DNA of 61,360 nt from NCBI GenBank assembly GCA_021814565.1, contig JAKAIC010000001.1:1-61360 (forward strand). Reading direction: 5' to 3'. Position numbers and translations under genes: made by a program. Of this stretch, positions 2-35,972 are shown one piece after another (positions within the stretch are counted from its first letter, which is position 1; each line of letters opens with the position of its first letter). The notes under the pieces are model-generated. The model made no database searches. It saw only the letters and a program-made list of their open reading frames with translations, and had not been told where the DNA came from. Source of the DNA: Actinomycetes bacterium. Its GTDB lineage: Bacteria > Actinomycetota > Actinomycetes > S36-B12 > UBA5976.

Positions 2-1009
2 CTGCCACTGATCGCGGACGTCCCCGAGTTGGCGCCCGAGCTGTCCGTGATGATCGACGGCTGGTGCCCGCAGGGTGTAGCCGATGCCATCTGGTCCCCT
101 GTTGCGGATGTCGCGGCGATAGCCATGGCCGCTTATGCGCCTGCATCCACGTCATCGGTCATGAACATCCGCTCAATCGTCGCGGACTACTGCCTGTGGG
201 TGCACGCGCGTCCGGCGCGCTCCGCCTGCGGAGACCTCACCGCCGAGGAGCTGCTGGCCGAGGGGCTGCTGGAACACTACTTCGCTGGCCCAGTGTCTGA
301 GCGTCCGCATGCGACGCAGGGGACTGTCCGCAGCGTGCTGCGGCGCGTGGTACGCAACTTGCGTCCTGGCAAGCGACCGGAGCCCATCGCCTACACGCCG
401 GTGCAGGCGCCCTACAGCGAAGCCGAGTGTGCCTCGTTCGTGCTGCTTGCACGACATCAGCCGACCGTGCACGGGCGCCGAGAACTGTCGTCACTTATCG
501 CACTCGGCCTTGGTGCCGGTCTGAGTGCGGAGGACTCCCGCAAGATTGCGCCCTGCCACATCCACGAGCTGGATCTCGGCGATGGCGTCACGACGTTGGC
601 GATCCGAGTACCCGGTGAAGCACCTCGGGGTCGCGTCGTCATCATGCGCAGCGCCTATGTGCCGCTTTTGCTTGAGGCAGTCCAACTGCACCAGAAGTCA
701 CGGCGCGGCACGACCAAGCCGCTGTACGGCAATAGCCCCGCTCGTCGCAATGGTGCGAGCCACGTCACCGAGCGTGCCGTCACGGCGATCGAGCAGGGCG
801 TGGACATTAGTGCAGCGCGCCTGCGCACGACGTGGCTGGTGGCCTGCCTGTCGTCACCGGTGCCGTTTGGTGCGCTCATGCATGCCGCGGGCCTGAAGTC
901 GCCTCGCACGTTCACGGACCTGCTGCGCTTCTGCCCGGCTCCCGATCCAGTTGCCGTTGAGCGTGCACTCGCCGCAGTGGCCACCACGAAGGTGGTGGTG
1001 CAGCCATGA
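2..1009 (+). CDS. Module copy 1, gene A (5' end outside window): integrase-fold protein that appears catalytically degenerate
   Basis: Frame is open back to nt 2. Aligns by eye to the C-terminal ~335 aa of the ORF at 32413..34194 (PLIADVPELAPEL.MIDGWCPQGV vs PLITPVPALATEL.MVDGWRPQGV; ARLRTTWLVAC; LMHAAGL). Stop overlaps the next start in ATGA (1006-1009). Confidence 0.7.
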   Translation: MPLIADVPELAPELSVMIDGWCPQGVADAIWSPVADVAAIAMAAYAPASTSSVMNIRSIVADYCLWVHARPARSACGDLTAEELLAEGLLEHYFAGPVSERPHATQGTVRSVLRRVVRNLRPGKRPEPIAYTPVQAPYSEAECASFVLLARHQPTVHGRRELSSLIALGLGAGLSAEDSRKIAPCHIHELDLGDGVTTLAIRVPGEAPRGRVVIMRSAYVPLLLEAVQLHQKSRRGTTKPLYGNSPARRNGASHVTERAVTAIEQGVDISAARLRTTWLVACLSSPVPFGALMHAAGLKSPRTFTDLLRFCPAPDPVAVERALAAVATTKVVVQP

Positions 1010-2787
1010 CCGGCCGCCGCGAATTCGAACGCGTCATGGCACAACTCGAAGCGAGCGGTGCTTGCGGCTACATCGAGTCGCTGCTCCGCCCCGATGGCGC
1101 TGGAGGTCGCCCCCGGCAACTCTCGGTGGCGGTGTTCTTGACCGCAGTGGTCTGCGCTGTCGATGAAAAGCAGGGTGCATTGTCATTGGTGCGAGTGCAT
1201 CACCAACTCACACAGGGCCTGGCCCGCAGCTACCGCGTGCAACTAGGCATCACCACTTTGGATGCCGGCGGTACGGACAGGTCCATCAGCCTGCGCCAGG
1301 TGCGTTACATGCTGGAAGCGATCGAAACGAAACTCGCGTTCAGCGAAGGGCGTGTGCCCGACCTTGCAGATGACGATCGCGCAAACCGTGCCGACGCACT
1401 ACAGCGAGTCCTGGACCTCATCGTGGCCGGGAGTATCCCGGACCATCTGCCCGCACCTGAGTCATGGGCACTGGATGGCACCGCCGTCGAATCCTGGGGC
1501 AAGGGTCGTAGACGCGGTCCCGTTGACCCGGATGCTGATCACGCGCAGGACGACGACCTCATGCGAGATGGCACGGCTGTTGCCGTACAGCCGTTGTTTG
1601 ATGTGGATGCGCGCTGGGGGTACCAGACCAAGACGTACGACAACAAGACGAACCTCTGCTACGGCTACCACGTGTTCGGCATGGTCGGGCTGTTGCCTGT
1701 TGGCGCCGACCCAGATTTGCGACCCAAACTCACGGAGCGGATCAGCATCCGGCCCGCGAATGCGAACGCGATCGTAGCGGCGCTCACCATGATCGACTCC
1801 CTCAACGTCGCCAACCGGCATGTGCGGGAACTGCTTTCCGATCGTGAGTTCTCCTACAAGTCCGAGCAGTCCTGGGCGCAACCGCTGCGGCAGCGCGGAG
1901 TGTCCCAGGTCATGGACCTGCACCCGAATGATCGAGGCATCCGCGACTACAACGGCATCGCCATGATGGACGGTGTCCCCTACTGCAGCGCCGCGCTGGC
2001 CACCCGGCCGGACCTGGTGAACATCGCGCGCCCAGAACGCTTCTCGGCGCCGCCGCTCAAGGCCAACGCCTCCGTAGAAGAGCGGGAAGAGCATGATCGC
2101 GTCACCGCGCAGATCGCAGAGTTCAACAGGCTCAAGAGTGAACCCGAGCAGCGCGCGTTCCGTCGCGTCGCTGGCCCGGACGCCGATGGCAATGAGAGAT
2201 ACGAGTGCCCGGCGCAAGCTGGCAAGCTCATCTGCGCCAACTGTCCGTTCTCACTGAACTTCCTCGACGGCGTGCCGGTCGTCGAGAAGCCCCACGCCCT
2301 GCCCGCGTTGCCGGTGCGGCCAGTCCGCCTTGACTCGTCGGCGACGGCAGCTGAGCGTGAGCAGTACCGGCAGGACCTCGACAGATACAACACGCAAGCG
2401 GACTTCCTGCGCTGCTGCCGCCAGCGCACCATCACCATCCCCGGCACCGTGACACCCAAGACGCGCCAGAAGTTGGCGTGGGGCTCTGAGGACTGGCAGG
2501 AGTCCTACAAGCGCCGTACCCACGTGGAAGGCGCTTTCGGAAACTGGAAGAGCCCGAAGACCTCCCGCGTCCAACGCGGCTGGATCTACGTCGTCGGCCT
2601 TGTCAAGACTGGAATCATGATCGCCTGCGTCGCCTTCGCCACAAACATGCGACTGCTCCGCCGCTGGTCAGAACGAACCGGCGACATCACCGACCCACTG
2701 ACGAAGCCGCTACCGGAGTCGCTCGGGTTCGAGGAACTCGATGCCGACGGCAACCTTGACCTAGCTGACGGTCCACCAGGCGCGTAG
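1006..2787 (+). CDS. Module copy 1, gene B: IS4-like DDE transposase with Cys-rich insert
   Basis: 593 aa. Candidate catalytic D in WALDGTAVESWGK and D in LLSDREFSYKSE. Exact Y-x2-R-x3-E-x6-K signature in SYKRRTHVEGAFGNWK. Cys cluster RYECPAQAGKLICANCP. Close paralogue of 34191..35972. Confidence 0.75.
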   Translation: MTGRREFERVMAQLEASGACGYIESLLRPDGAGGRPRQLSVAVFLTAVVCAVDEKQGALSLVRVHHQLTQGLARSYRVQLGITTLDAGGTDRSISLRQVRYMLEAIETKLAFSEGRVPDLADDDRANRADALQRVLDLIVAGSIPDHLPAPESWALDGTAVESWGKGRRRGPVDPDADHAQDDDLMRDGTAVAVQPLFDVDARWGYQTKTYDNKTNLCYGYHVFGMVGLLPVGADPDLRPKLTERISIRPANANAIVAALTMIDSLNVANRHVRELLSDREFSYKSEQSWAQPLRQRGVSQVMDLHPNDRGIRDYNGIAMMDGVPYCSAALATRPDLVNIARPERFSAPPLKANASVEEREEHDRVTAQIAEFNRLKSEPEQRAFRRVAGPDADGNERYECPAQAGKLICANCPFSLNFLDGVPVVEKPHALPALPVRPVRLDSSATAAEREQYRQDLDRYNTQADFLRCCRQRTITIPGTVTPKTRQKLAWGSEDWQESYKRRTHVEGAFGNWKSPKTSRVQRGWIYVVGLVKTGIMIACVAFATNMRLLRRWSERTGDITDPLTKPLPESLGFEELDADGNLDLADGPPGA

Positions 2788-2946
2788 CACCAGTCGCCTG
2801 CAAGATCCCTGAACAGCTCGCAACAGCCCGCAGCCTCCGGCTAGCGGGCGAGCCGGCGTTCACCGGCAGCGCTTGCGTCGACGAACCAACCCCTGCGCGC
2901 GTTGCTCCGGCCCGCACCATCTGTTTCGTGAGGTGCCGCAAACCAC

Positions 2947-2992
2947 GAAACTCCCCGCGAGAACCTCTCAGAGGCTCCCATCGGGGAGTTTC
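2947..2992. repeat. Imperfect hairpin GAAACTCCCCG...CGGGGAGTTTC, duplicated at 36136..36181
   Basis: 11-nt perfect outer stem with a partly palindromic interior (CCTCTCAGAGG). Near-identical copy downstream of module copy 3, next to tRNA-Ser. Confidence 0.7.
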
Positions 2993-3135
2993 GCAACTCC
3001 GAATCCACTACTTTCGTAAGGACCCCTCTGGCGTGGAAATGACAGGCTGATCTGGCTCCGGCAGGACGGCTCGAAGTGGCCCCACTGATCTGCGGTTTCT
3101 GTTTGAGCGCGACGGCTTGATTTGGCCCCACCTGC

Positions 3136-4752
3136 GTGTTCGCATGTTCGTCTGCGGCGAGCTGGGGACAGGCGATGGGACGCAACCGGGTGGAACTGTT
3201 CGACAAGATCCGTACCGATCACGCGACGGGTGAGTACTCGATCCGCGCGTTGGCTGACCTGCATGGCGTGCATCGGCGCACGGTGCGGCAGGCGTTGGAG
3301 TCGTCGATTCCACCACCGCGAAAGACGCCGCAGCGTGCGGCACCCAAGTTGGGGCCGGTGGCCTCGATCGTCGATCAGTGGCTGCGTGATGACCTCACTG
3401 CTCCGCGTAAACAGCGGCATACCGCGCGCCGGATCTGGGAACGGCTCATCGATGAACACGGGTTGGAGGGGCTGTCGTATTCGACGGTCCGTGACCATGT
3501 CGCTAAGCGCCGCCAGGTGATCGCTGCCGAGGCCGGTGCCAGTGCTGAGGTGTTCATCGTGCAGCAGCATCTGCCCGGTGCTGAGGGCGAGGTGGATTTC
3601 GCTGAGCTCTACGCATACATCAACAACATCAAGGAGAAGCTGCACCTGTTCACGTTGCGCTTGTCGTGCTCGGGCAGGGCGGTGCATGTCGCGTTTCGCA
3701 CTGAAGCGTTGGAAGCATTCTGCGAAGGCCACGTGATCGCCTTTGAACGTCTTGGCGGCATGCCGGAACGGATCCGGTACGACAACCTGAAAGTGGCTGT
3801 CAGCAACGTCCTGATGGGTCGCGAGCGGCGTGAAGCAGACCGTTGGATCATGTTCCGCTCCCACTATGGATTCGACGCGTTCTATTGCCGTCCCGGCGTG
3901 GAAGGGGCGCATGAGAAGGGCGGCGTGGAAGGTGAAGGCGGACGATTCCGTCGCCGGCACTGCGTGCCCATCCCGCACGCAGCATCGTTGGAGGAACTCA
4001 ACGCCATGTTCGCTGCCGCAGACGCAGCAGATGATGCCCGCCGCATCGGGCAGCGTCCCCAAACCGTGGGCCAAATGTTTGCCCTCGAAGCACCCGCGTT
4101 GCGGCCTCTTCCCACCGAACGCTTCGAGACGGGCATCGAGGTGATGACGACAGTGGATCGGCACGCCCGGGTCACGGTCCGCCAAATCCACTACTCCGTG
4201 CCCGCGAAGTTGATCGGCCGCCGCCTGCGGGTGATCGCTCGTGCCAGTGAAATCCTCGTCTTCGACGGCCGGCACGTGGTTGCCCGTCATGAACGTTCCA
4301 CCGCGCGCGGCAGCCAACACCTGCAACTCGACCACTACCTGGAAGTCCTCGCCCGCAAACCCGGTGCCCTGCCCGGTTCGCTGGCGTTGGAACAAGCCCG
4401 CAAGGAAGGGCTGTTCACGGCCACGCATGAAGCGTGGTGGGCTGCAGCACGCGCCGCCCGCGGCGACAGTGACGGCACCCGCGCCTTGATCGATGTGTTG
4501 CTGCTGCACCGGCATCTGCCATCGCACGCAGTGCTTGCTGGCATCCGTGCCGCGCTCACTGTCGGCGCCCACGACCCCGACGTGGTGAGCCTTGAAGCAC
4601 GCCGTGCCGCACGCGGCGAGATGCCAAACGATGAGACAGCGCCTCATGCTTCAGCGGTCGCCCATCTTCCCGTCGATGTTCGCCCGCTGCCCGACACAGC
4701 CCGCTATGACGAACTCCTGACCCACCATCCGAGACGAAAGGTCACCACGTGA
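3136..4752 (+). CDS. istA: IS21-family transposase IstA (N-terminal HTH plus DDE domain)
   Basis: 538-aa ORF. N-terminal HTH (YSIRALADLHGVHRRTVRQAL). Typical size and a 4-nt overlap with istB. True start may be the MGRNRVELF Met at 3175. Confidence 0.8.
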   Translation: MFACSSAASWGQAMGRNRVELFDKIRTDHATGEYSIRALADLHGVHRRTVRQALESSIPPPRKTPQRAAPKLGPVASIVDQWLRDDLTAPRKQRHTARRIWERLIDEHGLEGLSYSTVRDHVAKRRQVIAAEAGASAEVFIVQQHLPGAEGEVDFAELYAYINNIKEKLHLFTLRLSCSGRAVHVAFRTEALEAFCEGHVIAFERLGGMPERIRYDNLKVAVSNVLMGRERREADRWIMFRSHYGFDAFYCRPGVEGAHEKGGVEGEGGRFRRRHCVPIPHAASLEELNAMFAAADAADDARRIGQRPQTVGQMFALEAPALRPLPTERFETGIEVMTTVDRHARVTVRQIHYSVPAKLIGRRLRVIARASEILVFDGRHVVARHERSTARGSQHLQLDHYLEVLARKPGALPGSLALEQARKEGLFTATHEAWWAAARAARGDSDGTRALIDVLLLHRHLPSHAVLAGIRAALTVGAHDPDVVSLEARRAARGEMPNDETAPHASAVAHLPVDVRPLPDTARYDELLTHHPRRKVTT

Positions 4753-5525
4753 GCCGAACAACCAACAGCGCAGATAGTGCCGCCATGACCGTCATCGACC
4801 GCAGCAGCCGCGCCTTGCGGCTGCCCACCATCCGCACCCGTGCCAGCGAAGTGATCGCTGCCGCGACCCGTGAACAGTGGTCCCACGCCCAGTTCCTGGC
4901 CGAGATCCTGGCCAGCGAATGCGACGACCGAGACCTGCGGGCACGAGCACGTCGCGTCGCCGCCGCGGGCTTCCCACGCGCCAAAACATTGGCCGAGTTC
5001 GACACCGACGCCAACCCCCACGTCGAACCCGCACTGCTCGGCACGCTCGCCACTGCCGCTTGGGTGCAAGCCGGGAAACCGTTATGTCTCATTGGTGATT
5101 CCGGCACCGGCAAAAGCCACCTCCTCATCGCCCTCGGCACCGCCGCCGCCGAAGCCGGCCACCGAGTCCGTTACGTGCTCGCCTCACGCCTGGTCAACGA
5201 ACTCGCCGAAGCCGAAAACGAGCGACAACTCACCAGGCTCATCAACCGGTACGGCCGCGTCGATCTGCTCTGCATAGACGAGCTCGGCTACCTGCAACTC
5301 GATCGCCGCGGCGCGGAACTGCTGTTCCAGGTCATGACCGAACGCGAAGAACGAGCCGCCCTCGCCGTGGCCTCCAACGAGCCATTCAGCAACTGGGGCA
5401 ACACCTTCACCGACCCGCGGCTGTGTTCCGCGATCATCGACCGCATCACCTTCAACGGCACCATCATCGAAACCGGCACCACGTCCTACAGGCTCACATC
5501 AACCCGCGCCAACCGCAGCCACTAA
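4749..5525 (+). CDS. istB: IS21-family helper ATPase IstB
   Basis: 258 aa. Walker A GDSGTGKSH and Walker B-like LLCIDELGY. Start overlaps the istA stop. Confidence 0.85.
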   Translation: MSRTTNSADSAAMTVIDRSSRALRLPTIRTRASEVIAAATREQWSHAQFLAEILASECDDRDLRARARRVAAAGFPRAKTLAEFDTDANPHVEPALLGTLATAAWVQAGKPLCLIGDSGTGKSHLLIALGTAAAEAGHRVRYVLASRLVNELAEAENERQLTRLINRYGRVDLLCIDELGYLQLDRRGAELLFQVMTEREERAALAVASNEPFSNWGNTFTDPRLCSAIIDRITFNGTIIETGTTSYRLTSTRANRSH

Positions 5526-5685
5526 CCGACCAGGTGGGGCCACTTCGCGGCGTCCCCGCGGGGCCAAGTCAGATTGACATTTTCACTGGCGGGAGGATCC
5601 TCAAAATGGCCCGTTCAGAGGCGTCTTCGGTGTCCTGTTCGGTCTCAGTCCGGACTTCCCCCATCTCGAAGCTAGTTTTGCCCCC

Positions 5686-6288
5686 ATGGCCGATGTTGAG
5701 TCAGCAGGGTTCTCAATCACACCCGGTGGCAAGGCACCTGCTGCTGCGATCTTGGTGCCCGGTGCACGCTATGACATGGCCGCCCCGTTGTTCGCGAAGC
5801 TCATTGAGGGCCTGAGCGCCGAAGGCCTGGGTTGGGTCGCCATCTCCTGGACCGATTCCGTGCACGGACATGACCTGTCGACCATGTGCCAGCTCGTGGA
5901 CCGTGCCGTCCGAGCCGTTGAGGCACTCGCATCCCAGGACGCCACGATCGTCGCGAAGTCCTTGGGCACGCTCGCTGTTGCGACAGCAGAAGCCCTGCAT
6001 CGGCCGGGAGTGTGGTGGACGCCGATCGTCGGATCGGCAGCCGATCGGGGCGGCTATGGCGCGTACGTCCGTGAGCGTCTGGTCAGGAGGAGCCGCGCCG
6101 ACCTCGTCTTCGGTGGCTCTGCCGACGCGTTGTGGGATCGAACGGCCATTCCCTCGCAGCACCAGACCGTGGAGTTCCCGGGCGCCGATCACGGCCTGGA
6201 GATCGATGGCGACCCAGCGGCAACGGCAGCAATCCACGAAGCGGTCTCTTCTCAGACCCTCGAGTTCATTCGCGGGCACACGCGGTGA
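5686..6288 (+). CDS. Small alpha/beta-hydrolase-like protein
   Basis: 200 aa. Candidate nucleophile elbow-like IVAKSLGT and C-terminal FPGADHGL. Stop overlaps the next start (GTGA). Confidence 0.45.
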   Translation: MADVESAGFSITPGGKAPAAAILVPGARYDMAAPLFAKLIEGLSAEGLGWVAISWTDSVHGHDLSTMCQLVDRAVRAVEALASQDATIVAKSLGTLAVATAEALHRPGVWWTPIVGSAADRGGYGAYVRERLVRRSRADLVFGGSADALWDRTAIPSQHQTVEFPGADHGLEIDGDPAATAAIHEAVSSQTLEFIRGHTR

Positions 6289-7220
6289 GCGTCTCCGACG
6301 CGCCCGACCTCGCGCTGCCTCATGCCGTCCTGGATGCCATCACTCACCACACGGGCGAGGTTGTGCGTGTGACCGCCGCCGAGGCCGGTTTCACGCCGGG
6401 CGTGAAGTATCTGGCGGAGACTGCCGACGGCGGCTTCTACTTCGTCAAGAGTGCACCTTCGGATACCTGGGTGGCCCACGACTACGAGACGGAGGCGCGC
6501 GCTCACCTGTGGCTGCCAGTCACGGCGACCCGGTCGCTGCTGCTGGCCCACCTGACTGTCGGCGACCACCAGACCCTCATCTTCCGCGGGCTGCGAGATC
6601 GCAACCCCGGAGCCAGCGTGTGGGCCGACGAGACCGAGGTTGCTGATGCCCTTCGGGGTCTTGCACGGACCTACTCGGGTATCGACGCGGCAGCACCGGC
6701 TGACCTGCCGAGCAGCGTCACCGATTTCTGGCCCGGGCTGACGTTCTGGCGCGACTGCGCCGCCGGCTTGGCCGTTGCGCCCGAGGGAATCTCGCCGACG
6801 ACTGTGGCGCTGTTCGCCGACCTTGAAGGCCACTGCGTCGCGGTCCTGTCCCGGCCAGAGTGGGCGAGTGAGGTATCGCACGAAGACCTGCGCAGGGATC
6901 AGTTCCTCATCGAAGATGATGGCACGGCAACCGTTATCGACTGGTCCTTTGTGACCCGCACTCCACGGATCGTCGACGCGGTATCCCTTGGAGTCGGAGT
7001 CTGCGTCGCTGGCCTTGATGCCGAGATGGTGCTCGACCCAGCGGGGCCGTTCGACGGCTACGACGCCGATGACATCGACGCGGTTCTGGCTGCACTGGCC
7101 GGGTACTTCTTTCGTGCGACGCTCGTGACGGACGGGAAGCCCGAACGGCTATGCGCCGCGCAACTCGCGCAGGGTCAGGCGTGCGCCATGTGGCTCGGTC
7201 AGCGACGCGCATCGAACTGA
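6285..7220 (+). CDS. Aminoglycoside-phosphotransferase-like (APH/choline kinase fold) protein
   Basis: Brenner-like motif HEDLRRDQFLI followed by VIDWSF. GTG start at 6285 chosen because it overlaps the upstream stop. The tracked ORF start at 6132 would overlap the hydrolase gene. Confidence 0.6.
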   Translation: MSVSDAPDLALPHAVLDAITHHTGEVVRVTAAEAGFTPGVKYLAETADGGFYFVKSAPSDTWVAHDYETEARAHLWLPVTATRSLLLAHLTVGDHQTLIFRGLRDRNPGASVWADETEVADALRGLARTYSGIDAAAPADLPSSVTDFWPGLTFWRDCAAGLAVAPEGISPTTVALFADLEGHCVAVLSRPEWASEVSHEDLRRDQFLIEDDGTATVIDWSFVTRTPRIVDAVSLGVGVCVAGLDAEMVLDPAGPFDGYDADDIDAVLAALAGYFFRATLVTDGKPERLCAAQLAQGQACAMWLGQRRASN

Positions 7221-7490
7221 AGCGCACTCGTGGAAGCAGGAAGCCGGTGCCCCTGCGAGGTGCCGTGAAGCACGCGCGATCCATCGGACATTCAAGCGAG
7301 AGCGTCGCCATCACAAGTTGGCGGCGACGCCATTGCCGCACTGGCAACATGCCGGGAGGGGGAAGCGGTACAGGTTCTGCCGGGTTGAGCAGAAGGACGG
7401 CCCGATGGCCCGCGCAAGAGTCGGTCAACTTGAACTGTGGGTTCACAAGATGTCTCGCAGACATCCGATCGTGGCAGGTGCCCCACCGTG

Positions 7491-8270
7491 TCAGCGGGCC
7501 GTGCCCGTGACTCCGAGCCAGTCCAATGCCGCATCCAGCGAGGGCACCTGCGGCCACTGCCCGTCGCCGTTCACGTGGAGGCGATTGAGCCATACGGCTG
7601 GTAGTCCGGCGGCGGTGGCTCCTGCCACATCGCTGCTGACGACGTCACCAATGTAGGCCGTGACAGTCGGGAGCGTGTCCAGCGCTCGGCACAGAGCCTC
7701 GAACGCACGTGTATCGGGCTTCCCGGCCGGAAGGTCGCTCGATGCCACCACGACATCGACCGCGTCGTACAGACCGATGGCACGCAACTTTGCCTCCTGC
7801 TGTTCGCGCTGGCCGTTGGTGAGCACGCCGATGCGCAGATCGGCACCGCGGAGGGCATCGAGGAATCGGGCGGCGTCGGGGTACGCGGTCCAGGAGGTCT
7901 CGTAGTGGCGCAGGTAGCGCGAGAAGAGCTCGTCCAGGTCGTGTGCCTGCGGATGCTCACCTACGGCGATGAGCGTGTCGTGCACACGTCGTCGACGCTG
8001 CTCCTGGAACGTGATGGCGCCGGTCGTGAAATGGGGGAAGTGCGTGCGCTCAGCTTCCGCCCATGCGGCAGCGGTGACACTCGCGGGCCAGCCGCACTCC
8101 TCGGCCCAACTGCGTGCTGCCGTGTCTGCTGATGCCGCGTGGTCCATCAGCGTTCCGTCCAGGTCCACGCCGACACCTACGAGGTGGGTGGTTCGGACGG
8201 CACTCCGTGTCGGATTCGCGGTCACAGGCTCCATCCTCTCGTCTCGCACAGTGAACAGGCCCGCCAACAC
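7491..8270 (-). CDS. HAD-superfamily hydrolase (subfamily IA-like)
   Basis: Motif I VDLDGTLMD, motif II VLTNG, motif IV YIGDVVSSD. Start uncertain (alternative Met at 8234). Confidence 0.7.
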   Translation of the reverse strand: MLAGLFTVRDERMEPVTANPTRSAVRTTHLVGVGVDLDGTLMDHAASADTAARSWAEECGWPASVTAAAWAEAERTHFPHFTTGAITFQEQRRRRVHDTLIAVGEHPQAHDLDELFSRYLRHYETSWTAYPDAARFLDALRGADLRIGVLTNGQREQQEAKLRAIGLYDAVDVVVASSDLPAGKPDTRAFEALCRALDTLPTVTAYIGDVVSSDVAGATAAGLPAVWLNRLHVNGDGQWPQVPSLDAALDWLGVTGTAR

Positions 8271-8516
8271 GATCGGCCCGCATCGCCCGACCCCGCAGTT
8301 GGACTTCCACCTGAGTGGGGCCGGATCCGTACCGGGTCGGGCCGTGCAGCATCATCGGTCTGGTGGTGTCACGGGACGTACGTCTGCTGACCTGGACGGC
8401 CGATCGGCCATCGGCAAGTGGCAGGTGCGGCCCGTCTGGCCACCTTCGCGCCTCCTAGCGCGCCGCGCGGAACGGCGGACGTTCCCGCGAGGTGCCCGTG
8501 AGGTTCGTGGGCCACA

Positions 8517-11566: not shown

Positions 11567-11684
11567 GGCGTAGAGCCGATTGTCCACAGTGAGATTGAAG
11601 CGTGCCGTTCCGAGTCGCAGCCCGATGGCCGTCCCTAGGGCGGTGACACTGGAACAGGCACGCTGGTGATTGCGCGGGTGACAG

Positions 11685-27389: not shown

Positions 27390-28165
27390 GCGTCACCGAC
27401 TATGGCGTATGGGGGACGCTCAACGACGCGCTCGCTGGGCCTGCAGAACCGGAATTCGTTGAATACTTCAACTCACTTCTGCAGCCGAATGCCCGTGTAT
27501 TCGAGGTGGGCATTGGATCCGGTCGACTGGCATTGCCGCTGGCCAAGTCGGGCTTCAGAGTGTCGGGCATCGACACCAGTCAGCGCATGCTGCAACTCCT
27601 CGCCGAAAACGACCCCGATCAACTCATTAGTTATTCCACGGGAGACATCACAGAAGACCGGAACTTCGGCCGCTTCGATGCCGTATTGCTTGCCTACAAC
27701 GTCCTCTCGATGCTACCAAACAGAGAAGCGCAAGAGCGCGGCCTGCGCAACGCCTGCAGGCACTTGGCATCCAACGGCTTCCTCATCATCGAGAACGTGA
27801 CTCCGCACGCCATCACCTCCCAGTTGAATGAACGACGCCAAGCGATTGGCGTTCAATTTCACGACGATGAACTCTGGCTGAACCTGAGCCGCTATTACCC
27901 GGAAGAGCAGCGCTACAAAGCGCGATTCCTCGCCCTCGAGACCGGCGGCTTCGTCGAGCGTTCTGGCGATCTCACCCTCATCGAAGCAACGACAGTTTGC
28001 GACCTTGTCACGAGTCAAGGCCTGGACCTCATTCGCCAAGCGGACAGTTGGGCGGGGCATCAATTCTCCAACGACAGCGCCAGTTACATCCTGACCTTCC
28101 AGCGATGCGCCGATGCCACAGGCGGCAGTAAGAAGCCGGCTCCTACTTCGCGACAGGGGAGGTGA
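27386..28165 (+). CDS. Class I SAM-dependent methyltransferase
   Basis: VFEVGIGSGRLALPLA (motif I), GIDTS, AVLLAYNV. Start overlaps the rSAM stop. Confidence 0.8.
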   Translation: MSVTDYGVWGTLNDALAGPAEPEFVEYFNSLLQPNARVFEVGIGSGRLALPLAKSGFRVSGIDTSQRMLQLLAENDPDQLISYSTGDITEDRNFGRFDAVLLAYNVLSMLPNREAQERGLRNACRHLASNGFLIIENVTPHAITSQLNERRQAIGVQFHDDELWLNLSRYYPEEQRYKARFLALETGGFVERSGDLTLIEATTVCDLVTSQGLDLIRQADSWAGHQFSNDSASYILTFQRCADATGGSKKPAPTSRQGR

Positions 28166-28170
28166 ATCAA

Positions 28171-28227
28171 ATGGTGAAGGCAATTCTCATTCAGTCAGAG
28201 CCCATCATCGTGTGCGTCGTGCACTAG
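28171..28227 (+). CDS. Unannotated 18-aa ORF MVKAILIQSEPIIVCVVH (candidate RiPP precursor)
   Basis: GGGGAGG lies 7 nt upstream of the ATG and 5 nt after the methyltransferase stop. Followed 12 nt later by an 11-bp perfect GC hairpin. Too short for the ORF track. Confidence 0.4.
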   Translation: MVKAILIQSEPIIVCVVH

Positions 28228-28239
28228 GGATCTCGCACG

Positions 28240-28269
28240 GGTGGGGGCGCGATCTCAAGCGCCCCCACC
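28240..28269 (+). terminator. Strong GC hairpin GGTGGGGGCGC-N8-GCGCCCCCACC
   Basis: 11-bp perfect stem and 8-nt loop immediately after the 18-aa ORF. Confidence 0.6.
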
Positions 28270-28455
28270 GCGCGCTCGAATTCCTGGGACGCCCTTGAGA
28301 TGTGTAGACCCACCGTTCGACGAGATTCCTCTCCGCGACGAGCCGACCCGGATCGGCCCGGCAGGGCAACTCGTGCGGACGTTGTTGGACGGAACCGAAC
28401 TCCACCCAGACGTGCCTGATCAAGTCGACCAAGCACATGAGACAGACGGAGACTT

Positions 28456-29133
28456 ATGAAGACATCAAGACCTGCGTTACTGAGCGCGCTCGCCCTCACC
28501 GCACTAGTGATTGCCACCGGCGGATTCACGAGTGGCGCCACCGCAACTGAGCGATTGGCCACTTCGGCAGGGGGATCCACGGCAGCCAGCGGTTCGAGGC
28601 CTGTGTACGTTGTAGCCATTCATGGGCCGGGCGTTGTGCACCAGGCCGACGGCACCGCCTTCTACCCGACAGGCAAGTTAGCGGCGGGGACGATCATGGT
28701 TATCCCAAATGAGGACGGCACGCTTCCCGGCGGGATGTCAATCTCAGAAATTGCGCGTCGAGCCAACAGTTCTACAACAATGGCGGCTGCGTCATCATGC
28801 CTCGGCGGAACGTATCTGACCACACTGAACACATGGACGAGTGTCCAAACGGCAACGAATTGTGTCGTCATCGGATCGTCCACGGGCACAGTGAGCTACT
28901 GGTTCGGGATTGCCCCCGGAACCAACGGGTCAGCTTTAGGCCAAGGTCTTGGGTACTACCAGGGCTACAACGGATCGACATTCGGCATTTGGGCGAAGTG
29001 GTACGGACTTGGCATGGCTTCCGATGGTTTGCCGGGAGGCGCAACATTGCCATGGGTGAACGTTGCGGCGAACCCAAAGTTCATGGCAATGGGTATGTCA
29101 ATCGTCCCGGCAATGGGCAACTGGGGCGTGTAG
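28456..29133 (+). CDS. Secreted protein of unknown function
   Basis: 225 aa. Signal peptide MKTSRPALLSALALTALVIATGGFTSGATA. Gly/Thr/Ser-rich mature part. Confidence 0.6.
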   Translation: MKTSRPALLSALALTALVIATGGFTSGATATERLATSAGGSTAASGSRPVYVVAIHGPGVVHQADGTAFYPTGKLAAGTIMVIPNEDGTLPGGMSISEIARRANSSTTMAAASSCLGGTYLTTLNTWTSVQTATNCVVIGSSTGTVSYWFGIAPGTNGSALGQGLGYYQGYNGSTFGIWAKWYGLGMASDGLPGGATLPWVNVAANPKFMAMGMSIVPAMGNWGV

Positions 29134-29273
29134 AGCGCAGCGGCGTGGCGGGCTCGCTGATCCATCGGCTGGCCCGTCACGTCTCGCCTGCTCGTTCATT
29201 GCTCGCTGACCGGTTGATTGCGCAGCCAGCGCAGCTGAGCACAATACTTTCGACTGGACCGAGGGGCGTGTAC

Positions 29274-29777
29274 GTGTTGAGGAGACTGAGACAGCATTCA
29301 TGTTCGCAGAACGTCCTTGGGCCTGCCTCGATTCTATTGGCGCTGGCGCTCACTTCCGGCTGCGGGACTGTTCAGAAGTCGGCGTCGCCAAACGAAATGA
29401 CGGCGCTACGCTTGGTGGTAGCTGAATGCTCGACCATAAGCAGCGCGAGCAGTGAACTTGCGACGGATGTTGGACTCCCCGAGGCAATCGAACGTGATCG
29501 GCGACTTCGGCAGTTTGCTGCCTCGCTGAATTCCGCTTCAGCCACGGTGAAGATGGTGGAGCAGAGGATGCCCGCTGGTGTAGCCAGGAGCAACGTCGAA
29601 GCTGTGGCGGGGGCACTCAAGCGGTTTTCGAGTCGCACGGCCTCGTACGTCGATGCTGTGCCGGCGGCAACAACTCAAACCGACCCCCGCACGCTCCATG
29701 CGTTTGCAGAGCTACTCTCAGCAAACGCAGAGTTCGCAACCGCGTGCGCCCGCCTGGTGGATCCGCGCATCAAGTAG
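29274..29777 (+). CDS. Putative lipoprotein
   Basis: Lipobox LALTSGC after a basic n-region. GAGGGG lies 7 nt upstream of GTG 29274. The upstream part of tracked ORF 28797..29777 overlaps the previous gene out of frame. Confidence 0.5.
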   Translation: MLRRLRQHSCSQNVLGPASILLALALTSGCGTVQKSASPNEMTALRLVVAECSTISSASSELATDVGLPEAIERDRRLRQFAASLNSASATVKMVEQRMPAGVARSNVEAVAGALKRFSSRTASYVDAVPAATTQTDPRTLHAFAELLSANAEFATACARLVDPRIK

Positions 29778-30055
29778 ATCGACCGTGGTCGAGGCGTCAC
29801 GCCGATCGCCGCGGAAAACGGCTTCAGGCATGAATCCCACGGGCTCGGACCATTCCTGGCGGAGATGACTTCGACCCTCTTCGCGACCGACTCTTCGAGC
29901 GGCCACAGATTCTGATTGTGATGGAGCGCCTTGCAACCGCTCCCGCGATGTTGAGGAGCAGAGTCCGAGAATCTGAGTAGCAGTCACTCGTCGGCCACGC
30001 GGCCGCGACTCTCGGAACACCAATCGATTTCGACTAGCTGCGAAGCAGACGGCTT

Positions 30056-30481
30056 CTAGTCGATAAAGCCATCGACATTGGTCGGCTTGTCGCTCAGGCG
30101 AACTCGCGACTTGTTCCACAGCAACCTGCGAAGAAGTGCGTCGTCGGCGGCGGCGCGCGATAGGACCATCCACACCGCTAACGAGCCAATATCCATTTTC
30201 ATGATGCGGTCGCGCCAAACAAGGTACGCCTGGGGTTGAATCATGCAGTAGAGGCTGACGACGATGGTGCCACACATGAGCAACTGAATCGTCGTAAAGG
30301 TCCAAAACCCCATCGCGCGCACCGAGGAGGATCTTCTCGCGCCGAAGGCGCGCTTGTTCGGCAAGTCAGCGAATTTGGCACGTGCCTTGGCCGCCCGAAT
30401 CAGCAAGGAACTCCCGATCGTCAAAGCGATAGACAGGGTGGCCGACATAGTAAGGAAGGACTGATCGCCTGCAGTCATCAT
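30056..30481 (-). CDS. Small integral membrane protein
   Basis: Start at MMTAGDQSF with GGGGGA 5 nt upstream. Three or four hydrophobic segments. Confidence 0.45.
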   Translation of the reverse strand: MMTAGDQSFLTMSATLSIALTIGSSLLIRAAKARAKFADLPNKRAFGARRSSSVRAMGFWTFTTIQLLMCGTIVVSLYCMIQPQAYLVWRDRIMKMDIGSLAVWMVLSRAAADDALLRRLLWNKSRVRLSDKPTNVDGFID

Positions 30482-30761
30482 GCGAATCCCCCATTGAGTA
30501 TGACGGCAGGTTAGGCGCACCGCGGTACTTAGTCGAGCACCGCCAACAGCAGCCAAAAGAAGACCTGCAGCATGCCACCAAATATCACTCCGAACAGCGG
30601 CGCACCGCCTGGATCCGCCTGCCAATCGGCTCGTCCGAGTATTGCGTACAGAATGAAGAACACCGTGTAGCCGACTGAGATCACCAAGCCACGGCGTCCG
30701 CGGCGATCTGGATATTCGAAGATGGGGTGGGACTGACCCGAGTTCGGTTGACTCCTAACAT

Positions 30762-31079
30762 GTGGGGCTGCGGCCCTGCTGGAAGGAGCCCAAGATGCCG
30801 AGGGCGTATCCGCAAGAGTTCAAGGACGATGTCGTTCGGATCGTGCTTTCCGGCGAGGTAACGATGGCGCAGGCGGCACGCGATTTCGGAGTGTCCGAGA
30901 CGTGCGTGTCGAACTGGGTTCGCAAGGCCCAGGTCGAAGCCGGGCAGCGGCCTGGCGTGACGGCCAAGGAGTCGACGGAGCTGAAGGAGGCGCGCAAGCG
31001 GATCCGGATCCTGGAGCAGGAAAACGAGATCCTGCGGAGGGCGGCGATCTATCTGGGTCGGGGAACGCTCCCAAAATGA
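30762..31079 (+). CDS. IS3-family OrfA (HTH plus leucine zipper)
   Basis: MPRAYPQEFKDDVVRIV...AARDFGVSETCVSNWVRK...ELKEARKRIRILEQENEILRRA. Confidence 0.85.
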   Translation: MGLRPCWKEPKMPRAYPQEFKDDVVRIVLSGEVTMAQAARDFGVSETCVSNWVRKAQVEAGQRPGVTAKESTELKEARKRIRILEQENEILRRAAIYLGRGTLPK

Positions 31080-31942
31080 TCTACCCCTTGGTGACGGAGC
31101 TGGCTGCCAAGGGGATCCCGATCGCCCGGTCGTGCAAGGTGTTGGGCTTCTCCAAGCAGGCGTTCTATGCGTGGAAGGCGGCGCCGGTGAGTCAGCGCGA
31201 TTGGGATGACGCGCACCTCATCAACGCCGCCCGCGATGTCCATGCCGACGATCCGACGTTCGGTTACCGGTTCATCCATGACGAACTCGAACTCACCCAC
31301 GGGCACTCGGTGGGACGTAACCGCATCCACCGGTTGTGTCGGCAGGAAGGTCTCGGCTCGGTCATCGTCAAGGGCCGCGGCAAGGGCAAGCGTCCAGGCC
31401 CTGCCGTGCATGACGATCTCGTGCAACGCCAGTTCGGTGCCGAACGCATCGACCGGCTTTGGTACGTCGACATCAGCGAGCACCCGACCTTCGAGGGCAA
31501 GCTGTATCTGTGCGCCATCAAGGACGCAGCATCCGCGCGGATCGTGGGCTATTCCATGGATTCCCGTATGACTGCCGATCTCGCCTGCAATGCGCTGCGT
31601 CACGCGATCCTGCGACGGCGACCCATCGGCACCATCGTCCACTCGGACCGTGGCAGCCAGTTCGGTGCCAAGAAGTTCCGCACCATCCTCACCGAACACG
31701 GGCTTCGCGGCTCCATGGGACGTGTCGGTGCGGCAGGCGACAACGCGGCCATGGAATCGTTCTTCGCGCTGCTGCAAAAGAACGTCCTCAACCGCCGCCA
31801 ATGGCAGACCCGAGACCAATTGCGGATGGCGATCTGCACCTGGATCGAACGCGACTACCACCGTCGCCGCCGGCAGGCTGGCCTGGGACGACTCACCCCC
31901 GTCGAATACGAGACAATCACCACCGCAGCATTAGCTGCCTAG
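31076..31942 (+). CDS. IS3-family OrfB (DDE integrase core), probably made as an OrfAB fusion
   Basis: WYVDISEH (D), HSDRGSQF (D), DNAAMESFF (E). The frame is open from 30902. Slippery C CCA AAA at 31070..31076. Confidence 0.85.
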   Translation: MIYPLVTELAAKGIPIARSCKVLGFSKQAFYAWKAAPVSQRDWDDAHLINAARDVHADDPTFGYRFIHDELELTHGHSVGRNRIHRLCRQEGLGSVIVKGRGKGKRPGPAVHDDLVQRQFGAERIDRLWYVDISEHPTFEGKLYLCAIKDAASARIVGYSMDSRMTADLACNALRHAILRRRPIGTIVHSDRGSQFGAKKFRTILTEHGLRGSMGRVGAAGDNAAMESFFALLQKNVLNRRQWQTRDQLRMAICTWIERDYHRRRRQAGLGRLTPVEYETITTAALAA

Positions 31943-32412
31943 CCACGAAGAACCCGAGTCAACGAAACTCGGGCCAGTCCCGGTTGTACCTCCGATTGAA
32001 TCGACGCCACCACACTGAGTCTGCGATTTTCGAATCATTGATGCGCATGCCGGTACCCACGTCCTCACCTTCCGCAGTAGATACCTGCCGGAGGGTCCGG
32101 CACTCTCAGGAATCGTCAAGCAGCTCGCGCTCGACGATGCTGGGCCGGCAAGCGCTAGCGGTGTGATGGACCAGAACGTCTCTCAGTGACCGTTTCGCTC
32201 GCGTAGGGCGAACTAGATACTTGGCGATCTGGCACAACTTGGCAGCGCAAGCTCTACCGAAGCAATCACACTGACATGGGCCTGCCACTCGGGCGCTGGG
32301 TCGCACCGCCAATGCATTGCGCAGCACTCGCACGGGCCGGCGCTGCGTTCGGACCGGCAGGTGAAGCCCGTGACCGATTGAACGAGAGTCGTAGGGACCG
32401 GCCCGCTGGCGA

Positions 32413-34194
32413 TTGCGCTATCGCCGTTATGCCGGACCAGTCCCCGGCATGGTGACACCCACACACACAGAGATCACGGTCCGTGTACGCCGCTTCACGC
32501 CCAGCCGCCTGGATGCTCCCGCGTGGGCTGCTGCCCGCGATGCGGCGGTTGAGGCGGTGCTCGCTGCGAACCCGCCGACGCTGCTGGAAGCCGACTACTA
32601 CTGCACGCACTTGACGTTGTTTCTGGCGAGTCTCTCGACTGGGGTATGGGACCGGGTCAGTGAACCTGACATAGCGCAGCTGCTGACTTCGACGGCAATC
32701 GACGTGTTCACCTCCGAGACAGGCATGCCTGGCAAGTCCAAGTACACGCGGAAGACGGCGCGCACGAGGCTTCGCCAGTTGCAGCGGGCCGCGCTCGATC
32801 GAACGAAGGCACCGAGCCGCCCGCGGGCGACGTCGAGGAAGGCTTCCCGGTTCTGGATGCGGGTGACGGGTCTGGCGCCATTCACGGCACTGGCGGAGGC
32901 ATACCGCACGGCCGGTGGCTCTCTGCACATCACTTCGTGGATGGAGATTGCCGAATCGTTGACCACGGATTTGCGCACGATGTCCCCTGCGGCGAATGCG
33001 ACGACGCCCCCGGTGGGCACGCTCCGCGGTGTCCAAATGGGTGCCGAGGCGCTTCGTGAGGTCAAGGCCCCGCAGGGGGTGAGGCTGATGGCAACGCAAC
33101 CGACATCATCGACAACTGTAGCCAAGCCAATGTCGCGAGCCGCGGCACTCCGAATGGCTCGGGCAGCGCAAACGGCCGTGGCTGCACCACTGATCACACC
33201 CGTGCCGGCACTGGCTACCGAGCTGCAAACCATGGTGGATGGCTGGCGCCCGCAAGGCGTGTCCGAGCAGGTGTGGGCGCCGGTGGAGGCAGCCGCAGCG
33301 ACCGCGATGGCGGCGTATGCGCCGACATCGCAGTCCTCGCTCATGAACATCCGTTCCGTGATCGCGGACTATTGCCTATGGGTGCACGACCACCAGACAC
33401 ACGCTGCGGGAGCAGACCTGACGCTCGAGGCGCTGGTCGCGGCAGGTGTCCTCGAGGCGTACTTCGCCGGACCACTCACCGTGCGTCCGGATGCGACGCA
33501 GGCCACGGCACGCAGTGTGCTGCGCCGAGTAGTGCGGAAACTCGCCCCGCAGACCGCGCCGACACCGATCAGCTATCAGCCGGTGCAACCCCCATACAGT
33601 GACGCTGAATGCGCATCGTTCGTGCTCCTGGCACGCAATCAGCCGACTGCACACATGCGCCGCGAACTGTCCGCCATGATCGCGCTCGGCCTAGGTGCCG
33701 GGTTGGCGGCGGAGGACTCGCGGCTGATTGCACCGTGGCATGTGCGGGAACTCGACCTCGGTGACAGCGCGCCCGCGCTGGCGGTGCTGGTGCCTGGTGA
33801 GGCACCGCGTGGCCGCCTCGTGGTGGTGCGCCGTGAGTATGAGCCGCTGCTGCGGGAAGTACTCGCCCTACACAAGCAGGCACGCCGCAGCTCCAGCACC
33901 CCGCTGTATGGGGTGAACCCGAAGCGTCGTAACGGTGCGAACCGGGTCACGGAGAAGGCGGTCACCGCCACCGGTCAAGGCGTCGACGTGAGTGCCGCAC
34001 GTTTGCGCACCACGTGGCTGGTGGCGTGCATGTCGTCACCGGTGCCGTTCGGTGCCCTGCTCCACGCCTCCGGCCTGCGGACTCCGCGTACCTTGACCGA
34101 TCTGCTGCCGTTCTGTCCCGCACCCGATCCGCTGGCGGTTGCGTTGGCGCTGCAGGTCGCGGGCGGAGCCTCGAATGCGCAGGTTGCATCATGA
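32413..34194 (+). CDS. Module copy 3, gene A: integrase-fold protein that appears catalytically degenerate
   Basis: 593-aa ORF. Likely start is the Met at 32449 (MVTPTHTEI). C-terminal half nearly collinear with copy 1. Confidence 0.7.
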   Translation: MRYRRYAGPVPGMVTPTHTEITVRVRRFTPSRLDAPAWAAARDAAVEAVLAANPPTLLEADYYCTHLTLFLASLSTGVWDRVSEPDIAQLLTSTAIDVFTSETGMPGKSKYTRKTARTRLRQLQRAALDRTKAPSRPRATSRKASRFWMRVTGLAPFTALAEAYRTAGGSLHITSWMEIAESLTTDLRTMSPAANATTPPVGTLRGVQMGAEALREVKAPQGVRLMATQPTSSTTVAKPMSRAAALRMARAAQTAVAAPLITPVPALATELQTMVDGWRPQGVSEQVWAPVEAAAATAMAAYAPTSQSSLMNIRSVIADYCLWVHDHQTHAAGADLTLEALVAAGVLEAYFAGPLTVRPDATQATARSVLRRVVRKLAPQTAPTPISYQPVQPPYSDAECASFVLLARNQPTAHMRRELSAMIALGLGAGLAAEDSRLIAPWHVRELDLGDSAPALAVLVPGEAPRGRLVVVRREYEPLLREVLALHKQARRSSSTPLYGVNPKRRNGANRVTEKAVTATGQGVDVSAARLRTTWLVACMSSPVPFGALLHASGLRTPRTLTDLLPFCPAPDPLAVALALQVAGGASNAQVAS

Positions 34195-35972
34195 GGCGCA
34201 GCGAGTTCGGCCGCATCCTCGATCGCGTCCAAGCCGGTGGCGTCACGACGTATGTGGAAGGACTACTGCGTCCCGAGGGCAAGGGTGGGCGTCCGCGCCA
34301 GTTGACCGTTGCCGTGTTCTTGACGGCCGTCATTTGCGCGGTCGATGAGAAGGAAGGCAAGTTGTCGCTGACGAACGTGCACGACTTGCTCATCAACGGT
34401 CTTGCACGCTCATACCGCATCGTGCTGGGCATCACCTGGACGGATGATGCCGGCAATGATTGCTCAGTCACACAACGGCAGGTCCGCTACTTGCTGGAGG
34501 CGATCGAGCTCAAGCTCGCGCACACGCAGGGTCGTGCAGCGGACCTGACCGACGAAGACCGAGTCACCCGTGCCGCCGCCCTGCAGAACGTGCTGGACCT
34601 GCTCGTGCAGTCGAGCTTGCCCTCGCACCTTGCCGCTCCCGGCATCTACGCCTTGGATGGAACGGGTCTGGCGTCTTGGGGTAAGGGCCGCAAGCGCACC
34701 CCTGTCGACCCGAATGCGGACCACGCTGAAGACGATGACTTGACCATCAACGATGACAATGCCGAAACCGCACTGCACAAGCGGCTTGATCCGGACGCGC
34801 AGTGGGGTTATCAGACGAAGACGTATGACAACAAGACGAACTACTGCTTCGGCTACCACGCGTTCGCCATGGTCGGTCTAGACCCGGTCGGAGTTGACCC
34901 GGATATTCGACCCAAGCTCATTGAAGGCATCGCGTTGCGGCCGGCCAACGCCAACGCCATCGACCCGGCACTCACGCTCATCGACTCACTGATCGCTGCG
35001 GGACGTCCCGTCAACGAGTTGCTGTCGGACCGTGAGTTCTCCTACAAGTCTGAAGAATCGTGGGCCGGTCCGCTGCTCGATCGCAAGGTCGCACAGGTCA
35101 TGGACATCCACAGCAAAGGCCGTGGCGTCCGTGACTTCAACGGTGTCGCGATGATCGATGGCACCCCGCACTGCCGCGCCGTACTCGGTGACCGCGACGA
35201 CCTCATCATCATTGCGCGACCAGCGAACCTGTCGGCCGGCACGTTGAAGGCCAACGCCACCGATGAGGAACGCGAGGAGCACGCCACACGTGTGCGGGAA
35301 CTGGCCGAGTTCCGTGCCAAGATCGCGCAGCGGGAAGTCGCTGCGTTCCGACGTGTCTCCAGCGCGGACGAGAATGGCGACGAGCGTTGGGAATGCCCCG
35401 CCCAGGCCGGCAAAGTGATCTGCGCCAACTGCCCACTGTCCTTGGGCTACCCCAAGGACCGCCCCGTCGTTGCCGAACCGCACCAAGTGCCCGCGCTGCC
35501 ACCGCGCCCCACGCCGCCGGCAAAGCGCACCAAGCATGCCGTCGAGCAGCACCGGCAGGCACTCAAGGCGTACGAGAAGCAGGCTGATGTCTTGCGCTGC
35601 TGCCGTCAACGCACCATCACGATTCCCGGCAATGTCACACCCAAGCAGCGGCAACGCCTGTACTGGGGTTCGGATGCCTGGATCGAATCCTTCGCGCGCC
35701 GCACCCATGTCGAAGGCGTCTTCGGCAACATGAAGAGCACGAAGGGCGCGAACCTCAAGCGCGGCTGGATCTACGTCGTCGGCATCGTCAAGACGAGCAT
35801 CATGCTCGCCTGCGTCGCCTTCGCCACGAACTTGCGCCTGCTGCGCTCTTGGTCCGAACGCACCGGCGATGTGACCGACCCACTGTGCCAACCGCTACCA
35901 CCGTCGTTGGGCTTCGAAGAACTCGACGCCGACGGCAACCCCGACCTGGCCGTCGCGCCACCAGAGCAGTAA
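34191..35972 (+). CDS. Module copy 3, gene B: IS4-like DDE transposase
   Basis: Start placed at the ATGA overlap (MRRSEFGRILDRVQAGG), by analogy with copies 1 and 2. YALDGTGLASWGK, LLSDREFSYKSE, FARRTHVEGVFGNMK, RWECPAQAGKVICANCP. Confidence 0.75.
   Translation: MRRSEFGRILDRVQAGGVTTYVEGLLRPEGKGGRPRQLTVAVFLTAVICAVDEKEGKLSLTNVHDLLINGLARSYRIVLGITWTDDAGNDCSVTQRQVRYLLEAIELKLAHTQGRAADLTDEDRVTRAAALQNVLDLLVQSSLPSHLAAPGIYALDGTGLASWGKGRKRTPVDPNADHAEDDDLTINDDNAETALHKRLDPDAQWGYQTKTYDNKTNYCFGYHAFAMVGLDPVGVDPDIRPKLIEGIALRPANANAIDPALTLIDSLIAAGRPVNELLSDREFSYKSEESWAGPLLDRKVAQVMDIHSKGRGVRDFNGVAMIDGTPHCRAVLGDRDDLIIIARPANLSAGTLKANATDEEREEHATRVRELAEFRAKIAQREVAAFRRVSSADENGDERWECPAQAGKVICANCPLSLGYPKDRPVVAEPHQVPALPPRPTPPAKRTKHAVEQHRQALKAYEKQADVLRCCRQRTITIPGNVTPKQRQRLYWGSDAWIESFARRTHVEGVFGNMKSTKGANLKRGWIYVVGIVKTSIMLACVAFATNLRLLRSWSERTGDVTDPLCQPLPPSLGFEELDADGNPDLAVAPPEQ

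Follow-up and report, generated by a model that had tools for sequence, protein, structure and literature searches.

The transposon Tn6022 has its target chosen by TnsF, an inactivated tyrosine-recombinase protein whose role as target selector has been proven experimentally (Faure et al. 2023, PMC10293859). Here we describe a 61,360-nucleotide stretch from an Actinomycetes bacterium of the GTDB lineage S36-B12; UBA5976 (assembly GCA_021814565.1, contig JAKAIC010000001.1, positions 1 to 61,360; hereafter the window) that carries three copies of a two-gene unit. The upstream gene, A, encodes a protein with a predicted tyrosine-recombinase fold, and the downstream gene, B, encodes a transposase with an Asp-Asp-Glu (DDE) triad. 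Probably, the window holds a tandem array of three target-site-specific DNA transposons of an undescribed family, in which B would cut and paste and A would select the target. We use the working name A/B elements for them.

In the A/B elements, as in Tn6022 with TnsF and in the Tsy elements, a recombinase-fold protein with lost catalytic residues stands beside DDE machinery (PMC10293859). Tn6022 likewise shows site- and orientation-specific insertion, target duplication, and defense or resistance cargo, and TnsF has been described with tandem core-binding-like domains (PMC10293859), an arrangement that the long form of A appears to share, as its sequence repeats point to an extra N-terminal core-binding-like module. 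Unlike Tn6022, which targets comM, the A/B elements target the 3' end of tRNA-Ser or tmRNA genes, lack TnsA, TnsB, TnsC, and TniQ, and use a single Tn5-like enzyme as the partner. Unlike TnsF, A has no N-terminal zinc fingers or Cys-rich N-terminus and keeps a full catalytic-type domain, and the likeness proposed is one of functional analogy. None of the Tn7-like core genes (TnsB, TnsC, TniQ/TnsD) is conserved in the elements, and the rve and IstB genes of the window occur only in intruding insertion sequences (IS) of the IS21 and IS3 families. Because TnsABC and TniQ genes are missing, the A/B family is a member of neither Tn7 nor Tn6022.

Tn7 (TnsD/attTn7) and the tRNA-homing CRISPR-associated transposons resemble the A/B elements in homing to a safe site by a conserved essential gene in a fixed orientation, in regenerating the target, in accumulating as islands, and in their defense-rich cargo, but they use heteromeric TnsABC with TniQ or Cas, whereas the A/B family has two proteins. 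Islands that integrate into tRNA or tmRNA genes and tycheposons share with the A/B elements the target class, the tandem arrays, and an integrase-fold protein at the tRNA-side end (Islander, PMC4383910). Unlike the classical tRNA islands, the A/B elements have no long att repeat (only about 9 bp) and end in inverted repeats, and a conserved DDE enzyme accompanies their A protein, from which most catalytic residues are missing. Strict specificity for small-RNA genes, tRNA genes included, is also described for the Dada DNA transposons with their DDE transposases; these differ from the A/B elements in being eukaryotic, in having an unrelated transposase family, and in having no recombinase-like partner (PMC3706591). 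Full-text literature searches returned no description of the A/B family, and named IS families were compared via NCBIfam models, not ISfinder. We read the A/B family, which is unnamed and widespread in Actinomycetota, as target-site-specific DDE transposons with a probable dedicated selector.

All three gene pairs lie on the + strand. In island 1, the A gene (A1, 29/2..1009) is truncated by the window start, and the remaining 3' part covers positions 266-592 of the A profile (E 2e-157); it is followed by B1 (1006..2787, 593 aa). Island 2 contains A2 (11685..13451, 588 aa, A-profile E 1e-150) and B2 (13448..15346, 632 aa), which belongs to a diverged subfamily. Island 3 contains A3 (32413..34194, with a likely start at ATG 32449 that gives 581 aa) and B3 (34191..35972), whose 593-aa product from ATG 34191 matches database protein P0001 with 100% identity and coverage. 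The A stop and the B start overlap in ATGA in three of three pairs. The six reading frames of the preliminary description were found again where it had placed them. Its ranking of the copies held as well: copies 1 and 3 are close (A1/A3 68% and B1/B3 63% protein identity, 68% DNA identity over 3 kb), and copy 2 is far more diverged, with 26-34% protein identity to either.

To place the pairs in a wider context, 33 loci with B relatives were taken from one-genome-per-species contigs. A lies immediately upstream of B in every locus with upstream DNA, except for L023, where there is none, and L030, where A is degraded. The coupling claimed for the window is therefore kept across the family, and since homologous pairs were found again in dozens of unrelated contigs, the pairing far exceeds chance. 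The exception in L023 (7052-9000) is an element of a tandem array with an intact B and no recognizable A upstream, and it may be non-autonomous or served in trans. Another locus, L031 from Blastococcus carthaginiensis, contains a second, diverged B-like open reading frame (ORF) on the opposite strand (2998-5184, -) a few kb from its A/B pair. A distant pair of an A-like (322 aa) and a B-like (579 aa) gene is found on the linear plasmid pSCL3 of Streptomyces clavuligerus (L001, 255367-258095); it has no tRNA within 13 kb and may represent a family branch with a different target.

The target is visible directly downstream of the pair in island 3. A tRNA-Ser(CGA) gene (36217-36306, -) lies 245 bp past the B3 stop, with its 3' end facing the right end of the island. 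The same arrangement, a tRNA-Ser or tmRNA gene convergent with B at 74-268 bp past the B stop, was found in the window and about 25 loci from many actinobacterial orders, and in nearly all loci having downstream DNA a tRNA-Ser (cga or gga) or tmRNA gene lies 199-268 bp past B; in L010 the tRNA is truncated by the contig end. It recurs at tRNA-Ser(gct) in Cellulomonas sp. CW35, a cultured isolate. Relatives of copy 2 (L037, L038, and L041) have tRNA-Ser(cga) 74-174 bp past B in the same register, even though in this subfamily B is just 26% identical and the end sequences are different. When junctions were aligned on the tRNA, each read from a terminal ...ACCCC through one base, the CCA position (3 bases), and the discriminator base into the acceptor stem, and the constant spacing from the terminal ...ACCCC to the discriminator base implies that both the insertion point and the orientation are fixed. 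ARAGORN also called an 89-nt 'tRNA-Gly' at 13908-13996 (-), which overlaps the B2 coding sequence and was set aside as most likely a false positive.

Where island 3 meets the tRNA gene, a 9-bp direct repeat, CCCTGGCGG (36214..36222), overlaps the tRNA 3' end; it takes in three trailer nucleotides, CCA, the discriminator base, and two acceptor-stem nucleotides. Even when up to 3 mismatches were allowed, the window held no further copy of the 28-nt 3' segment of the tRNA; only the approximately 9 bp are repeated. Island 3 (15481..36213, +, 20.7 kb) ends here with a right-end region (35973..36213) containing hairpin arms at 36135-36146 and 36171-36182 and the terminal motif GTTTCGGAAACAAC at 36200-36213. 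Its left end, GTTGTTGACCAAAC (15481-15494), is followed by two TTGCACAC boxes (15543-15550 and 15565-15572) and preceded by the direct repeat of junction 2/3, CCCTGGCAA (15472..15480). Island 2 (5592..15471, +, 9.9 kb) carries the end motif twice at its right end (15425-15438 and 15457-15471), and its left inverted repeat, GGAGGATCCTCAAAATGG (5592-5609), matches the inverted partner at 16 of 18 positions. The direct repeat of junction 1/2, CCTCTGGCG (3025..3033), is a relic of the tRNA 3'-end target. It adjoins the right end of island 1 (2788..3024), which has hairpin arms at 2946-2957 and 2982-2993 and the terminal motif CTTTCGTAAGGACC at 3011-3024. The same junction is interrupted by an IS21-family IS (3034..5585, +; istA 3136-4752, istB 4749-5525) with imperfect inverted ends of about 27 bp and a 6-bp duplication, CTGGCG (3028-3033 and 5586-5591); this IS is an intruder outside the A/B family.

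Terminal inverted repeats of 14-18 bp together with a direct repeat of 7-9 bp were found in seven delimited elements (L003, L004, L006, L008, L012, and islands 2 and 3 of the window). In L006, the 16 bases beside the tRNA recur 8.4 kb upstream as a perfect inverted copy (16/16), and both copies are flanked by CCCTGGCGG, while L004 has a perfect 9-bp direct repeat, CCTGAGCGG. Tandem junctions, consisting of a right end, 9-12 nt, and a left end, occur in the window, L008, L017, L023, and L032. A generic repeat search around each pair gave no convincing terminal inverted repeats until the tRNA junction supplied the register, and for tmRNA-type elements left ends were not found within the available flanks.

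The two ends are built differently. Right ends contain two or three copies of the end motif in all, and the second copy, about 30 bp inside, forms the base of a stable hairpin, which in island 3 reaches -64.6 kcal/mol (z = -6.7). Strong hairpins mark every right end, among them those of window islands 1 and 3, L003, L006, L008, and L012, with stem sequences that vary by locus. RNAalifold recovered just 5 pairs on 16 right ends because the stems align poorly, and the hairpin thus stands for each locus by itself, not as proven covariation. Speculatively, the hairpin may stop transcription from both sides, between B and the convergent tRNA, or be a palindrome that a protein binds. At left ends, two TTGCAC(A/G)C boxes spaced by about 23 nt occur at +70 to +105 inside the end (window island 3, L003, L004, L006, L008, L012, and L023). 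These boxes are conserved despite unrelated cargo and are candidate promoter, operator, or accessory binding sites.

The preliminary description took the three pairs for old paralogues, and their common strand and gene order, all within 36 kb, would suit an old segmental duplication in situ. This can be given a virtually negligible chance. Every pair marks the right end of a separate element, whose two inverted repeats match each other and whose cargo is unrelated to that of the others; the junctions hold copies of the tRNA 3'-end target, copy 2 belongs to another subfamily whose relatives are found at tRNA-Ser in other genomes, and equal stacking is seen in L008, L017, L023, and L032. Since each element has its own ends and the junctions carry target repeats, the window has three distinct transposons with different loads at the same tRNA-Ser target, and the copies are their core modules; the island nearest the tRNA is presumably the youngest.

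B is a DDE transposase of the IS4/Tn5 superfamily outside every named IS family model. This assignment is based on Pfam matches, an invariant D-D-E triad, and a fold match to Tn5, and it agrees with the IS4-type enzyme that had been proposed from the translation. DDE_Tnp_1_6 was matched by 23 of 32 B family members at E <= 0.01 (best 7e-7) and DDE_Tnp_1 by four; the window copies scored 19.9 and 22.7 bits against DDE_Tnp_1_6 (gathering cut-off 25.1), in the C-terminal part, and B2 gave no match. The AlphaFold2 model of B (pLDDT 86.8, pTM 0.84) had the Tn5 transposase structures 4dm0, 3ecp, and 1mm8 as its top three Foldseek matches (probability 0.98-0.99, about 590 aligned columns); retroviral integrases and the P-element transposase came next. 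A search of PDB sequences with the B profile gave no real match.

Across an alignment of 32 B family members, no exchange is seen at D156 (ALDGT), D280 (SDREF), R504, or E508, and at least 90% of the sequences have K515. The peptide signatures listed in the preliminary description are present, although the exact Y-x2-R-x3-E-x6-K holds for B1 only; B3 has F at the Y position, which is Y or F in the family and not invariant. The Cys motif ECPAQAGK.ICANCP occurs in B1 and B3 and is absent in B2. The four Cys residues of the family (C328, C402, C411, and C414) are invariant in a 22-sequence alignment that excludes the copy-2 clade and at least 90% conserved across all 32 sequences. Like Tn5/IS50 of the IS4 superfamily, whose Pfam clan DDE_Tnp_1 also takes in IS1182, B has an RNase-H-type core with an inserted domain, the D-D-E triad, and the R, E, and K of YREK; likewise, the terminal inverted repeats of the elements are short, and 9 bp would fit their duplication. 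Tn5 and Tn10 make 9-bp duplications. Unlike in Tn5/IS4, B has a conserved four-Cys insert and is coupled to a second gene (except in L023), and the elements carry 5-17 kb of cargo and have one defined insertion site and a single orientation.

No named IS family fits B, as had been suspected. The best NCBIfam match was IS1182 (NF033551), at 22-27 bits versus a cut-off of 270 and over the C-terminal 80 aa only. Membership in IS1182 failed on this score and on structure, as the elements have two genes and 6-21 kb, versus about 1.3-2 kb for a single-ORF IS. The plasmid collection contained no near-identical DNA, and a protein search gave just seven distant 'hypothetical' matches.

For A, an integrase fold had been proposed, and the predicted structure (pLDDT 84) agrees: Foldseek ranks 1-44 are all tyrosine recombinases, including Cre and its variant Tre, XerH, XerA, Tn1549 Int, and lambda Int, with about 300-370 aligned columns that span the core-binding and catalytic-domain fold. 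Profile searches with A found no Pfam, NCBIfam, or PDB sequence match. Long forms of A have about 580 aa, and short forms of about 300-370 aa occur in the tmRNA subfamily and some others. The family comprises 2,482 clusters at 50% identity (E <= 1e-3). To locate the catalytic positions, a profile alignment to E. coli XerD was used for register only, as it is non-significant (E 0.33). In this register, across 39 sequences, the Arg-I position is variable and follows an invariant GAGL motif, the His-II position is Ala, and Arg-II (R520) is the sole invariant catalytic residue; W523 is also invariant. The candidate Tyr lies in DLLx(Y/F/H)CP; A1, A3, and their clade have F in its place, and A2 has H. 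These motifs suggest that A is a recombinase-derived DNA-binding protein that no longer recombines. The apparent loss of catalytic residues in A had escaped the preliminary description, as had the tRNA/tmRNA target specificity, the element ends, and the cargo.

An active A would require a different reading, in which A is an atypical tyrosine integrase that conservatively recombines a circle across a crossover of about 9 bp and B is accessory or a leftover. We find this quite improbable. It would account for the full core-binding and catalytic-type recombinase fold of A, for the invariance of R520 and W523, and for the Tyr that most members keep in DLLxYCP; in addition, the tRNA and tmRNA 3' ends are classic integrase targets (PMC4383910), and the reconstructed circle junction consists of 14-bp inverted arms around a 9-bp spacer, as in lox/FRT. 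However, Arg-I and His-II are absent in all members, and the candidate Tyr is replaced by F or H in about a quarter of them, including the whole clade of A1, A3, and P0078-P0080, which kept inserting. Whereas attB arms normally resemble the arms of their element, the sequence on the tRNA side here does not. None of the 39 members gave a significant match to Pfam Phage_integrase (PF00589), the best being E 0.18 in one member. Moreover, the B ORFs are intact and the triad is invariant over roughly 25-65% sequence divergence.

We therefore return to cut-and-paste transposition, of which we infer B to be the catalyst. The Tn5-like fold, the triad, the inverted repeats, a duplication of Tn5/Tn10 length, the lack of a long att repeat, and the decayed catalytic set of A all support a DDE mechanism. 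Read from left to right, each element begins with an inverted repeat and variable cargo, continues with gene A and gene B, and closes with the right end, which bears the repeated motif and the hairpin. B would bind the 14-18 bp terminal inverted repeats, excise the element, and join it to staggered cuts at a fixed spot in the tRNA-Ser 3' end, or in tmRNA in one subfamily. Insertion would duplicate about 9 bp, running from two acceptor-stem nucleotides through the discriminator base and the CCA position to three trailer nucleotides, and the duplication would keep the tRNA gene whole and regenerate the adjoining target. As a consequence, later elements could insert at the same spot and push older ones outward, giving the three stacked copies of the window. 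The right-end hairpin would take the place of the tRNA's former downstream sequence and, speculatively, may terminate transcription.

A, translationally coupled to B, would supply target recognition and orientation by analogy with TnsF and TnsD. Alternatively, B alone might recognize both the ends and the tRNA, with A as an end-binding architectural or regulatory factor acting in orientation, inhibition, or immunity. We consider this unlikely, though a real prospect. In its favor, the right end has two or three copies of the end motif and the left end one copy and two TTGCAC(A/G)C boxes, and extra sites of this kind typically bind accessory proteins. The conserved four-Cys insert of B could bind DNA, and the tandem array at the target in L023 includes an element without A. 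Left to themselves, however, known Tn5/IS4 enzymes are not strict in their choice of target, and the nearest parallel for a dead recombinase within a transposon, TnsF, selects the target. That A, B, and the ends all differ among the three lineages (the main, copy-2, and tmRNA clades) does not separate the roles. Two proteins fused in one natural product might speak for an interaction, and two candidates were considered and rejected. P0035, from a 13,973-nt ENA metagenome contig, is a 756-aa in-frame fusion of A up to PYSEAECASF to B from residue ~230, and represents an internal-deletion, dead derivative of a near-identical copy-1-type element in another sample; the A-B 'fusion' in L011 lies on a contig with 1.15x coverage.

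Several points weigh against our preferred model of a DDE transposon guided by A. As the direct repeat has CC as its first and GG as its last two bases, the real duplication may span just 5 bp (CTGGC), the inverted repeats then being longer, and the inverted arms around a 9-bp spacer also match the layout of a tyrosine-recombinase core site. Foldseek E-values were modest for B (6e-3 to 1e-2) as well as for A, where the best was 6e-4 and E <= 0.001 was reached at ranks 1-2 only. The inactivity of A is read from a weak XerD alignment and from motifs, not from a structural superposition, and the Tyr retained in most A proteins counts here too. The A-less L023 element in a tandem array implies that A may not be needed in cis, and binding of A to the tRNA gene or to the transposon ends would both fit the present data. 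No pair of empty and occupied sites was found, and no excision product was seen.

An all-against-all comparison of 12 elements showed that only A and B are common to them, with no third conserved gene, and that the cargo differs. It amounts to 5-17 kb per element and often includes defense genes, which in other genomes comprise type I and type II restriction-modification, GmrSD, and TIR genes. Island 2 carries an APH-like kinase, a HAD hydrolase, and proteins without assigned function. Island 3 carries a PD-T4-6-like Ser/Thr kinase (18060-19022), a Peptidase_M78 and HTH pair (20174-21225), an E1-like ThiF protein (21866-23494), and a viperin-like radical-SAM enzyme (26181-27389) accompanied by a methyltransferase, besides an NT5C nucleotidase and an MFS transporter with ArsR. 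The cargo from 18060 to 29777 resembles a defense island. Just upstream of A3 lies an IS3-family element (about 30790-31950), with an OrfA-like HTH start near 30795 and an ORF (30902-31942) with rve, HTH_21, and rve_3.

To the right of the tRNA, the window continues as ordinary chromosome with a LytR_C protein, tRNA-Ser(gga), dnaX, ask, and asd. Farther on, tRNA-Pro(cgg) (46632-46708) is followed by lower-GC DNA up to 56000, which may be a further tRNA-linked island. It contains large ORFs with no known function (47545-49575 with HTH_17, 49588-51162, and 51159-52880) and an AbiEii toxin gene (54687-55634), and no integrase or att repeat was identified in the region 46632-56000.

We put at about even the chances of the fullest version of our model, a two-protein, site- and orientation-specific system, independent of Tn7 and TnsF, in which a dead tyrosine recombinase directs a Tn5-like enzyme to tRNA-Ser and tmRNA 3' ends and which drives the build-up of defense islands across Actinomycetota. 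If true, this would be one more family among the few bacterial transposons that target a safe site strictly, and the first to couple a simple Tn5-type enzyme, not the multi-protein Tn7 machinery, to a dedicated selector, and it would represent a second, independent recruitment of a tyrosine recombinase as a DNA-targeting module. The A family, with about 2,500 clusters at 50% identity, is without a Pfam model. Two proteins that insert 6-21 kb at one conserved site could also serve as an actinobacterial integration tool. For the genomes themselves, the A/B family explains tRNA-Ser- and tmRNA-linked actinobacterial islands that integrase-based finders would mis-assign or miss, and which carry restriction-modification, GmrSD, TIR, kinase, E1-like, and viperin-like genes.

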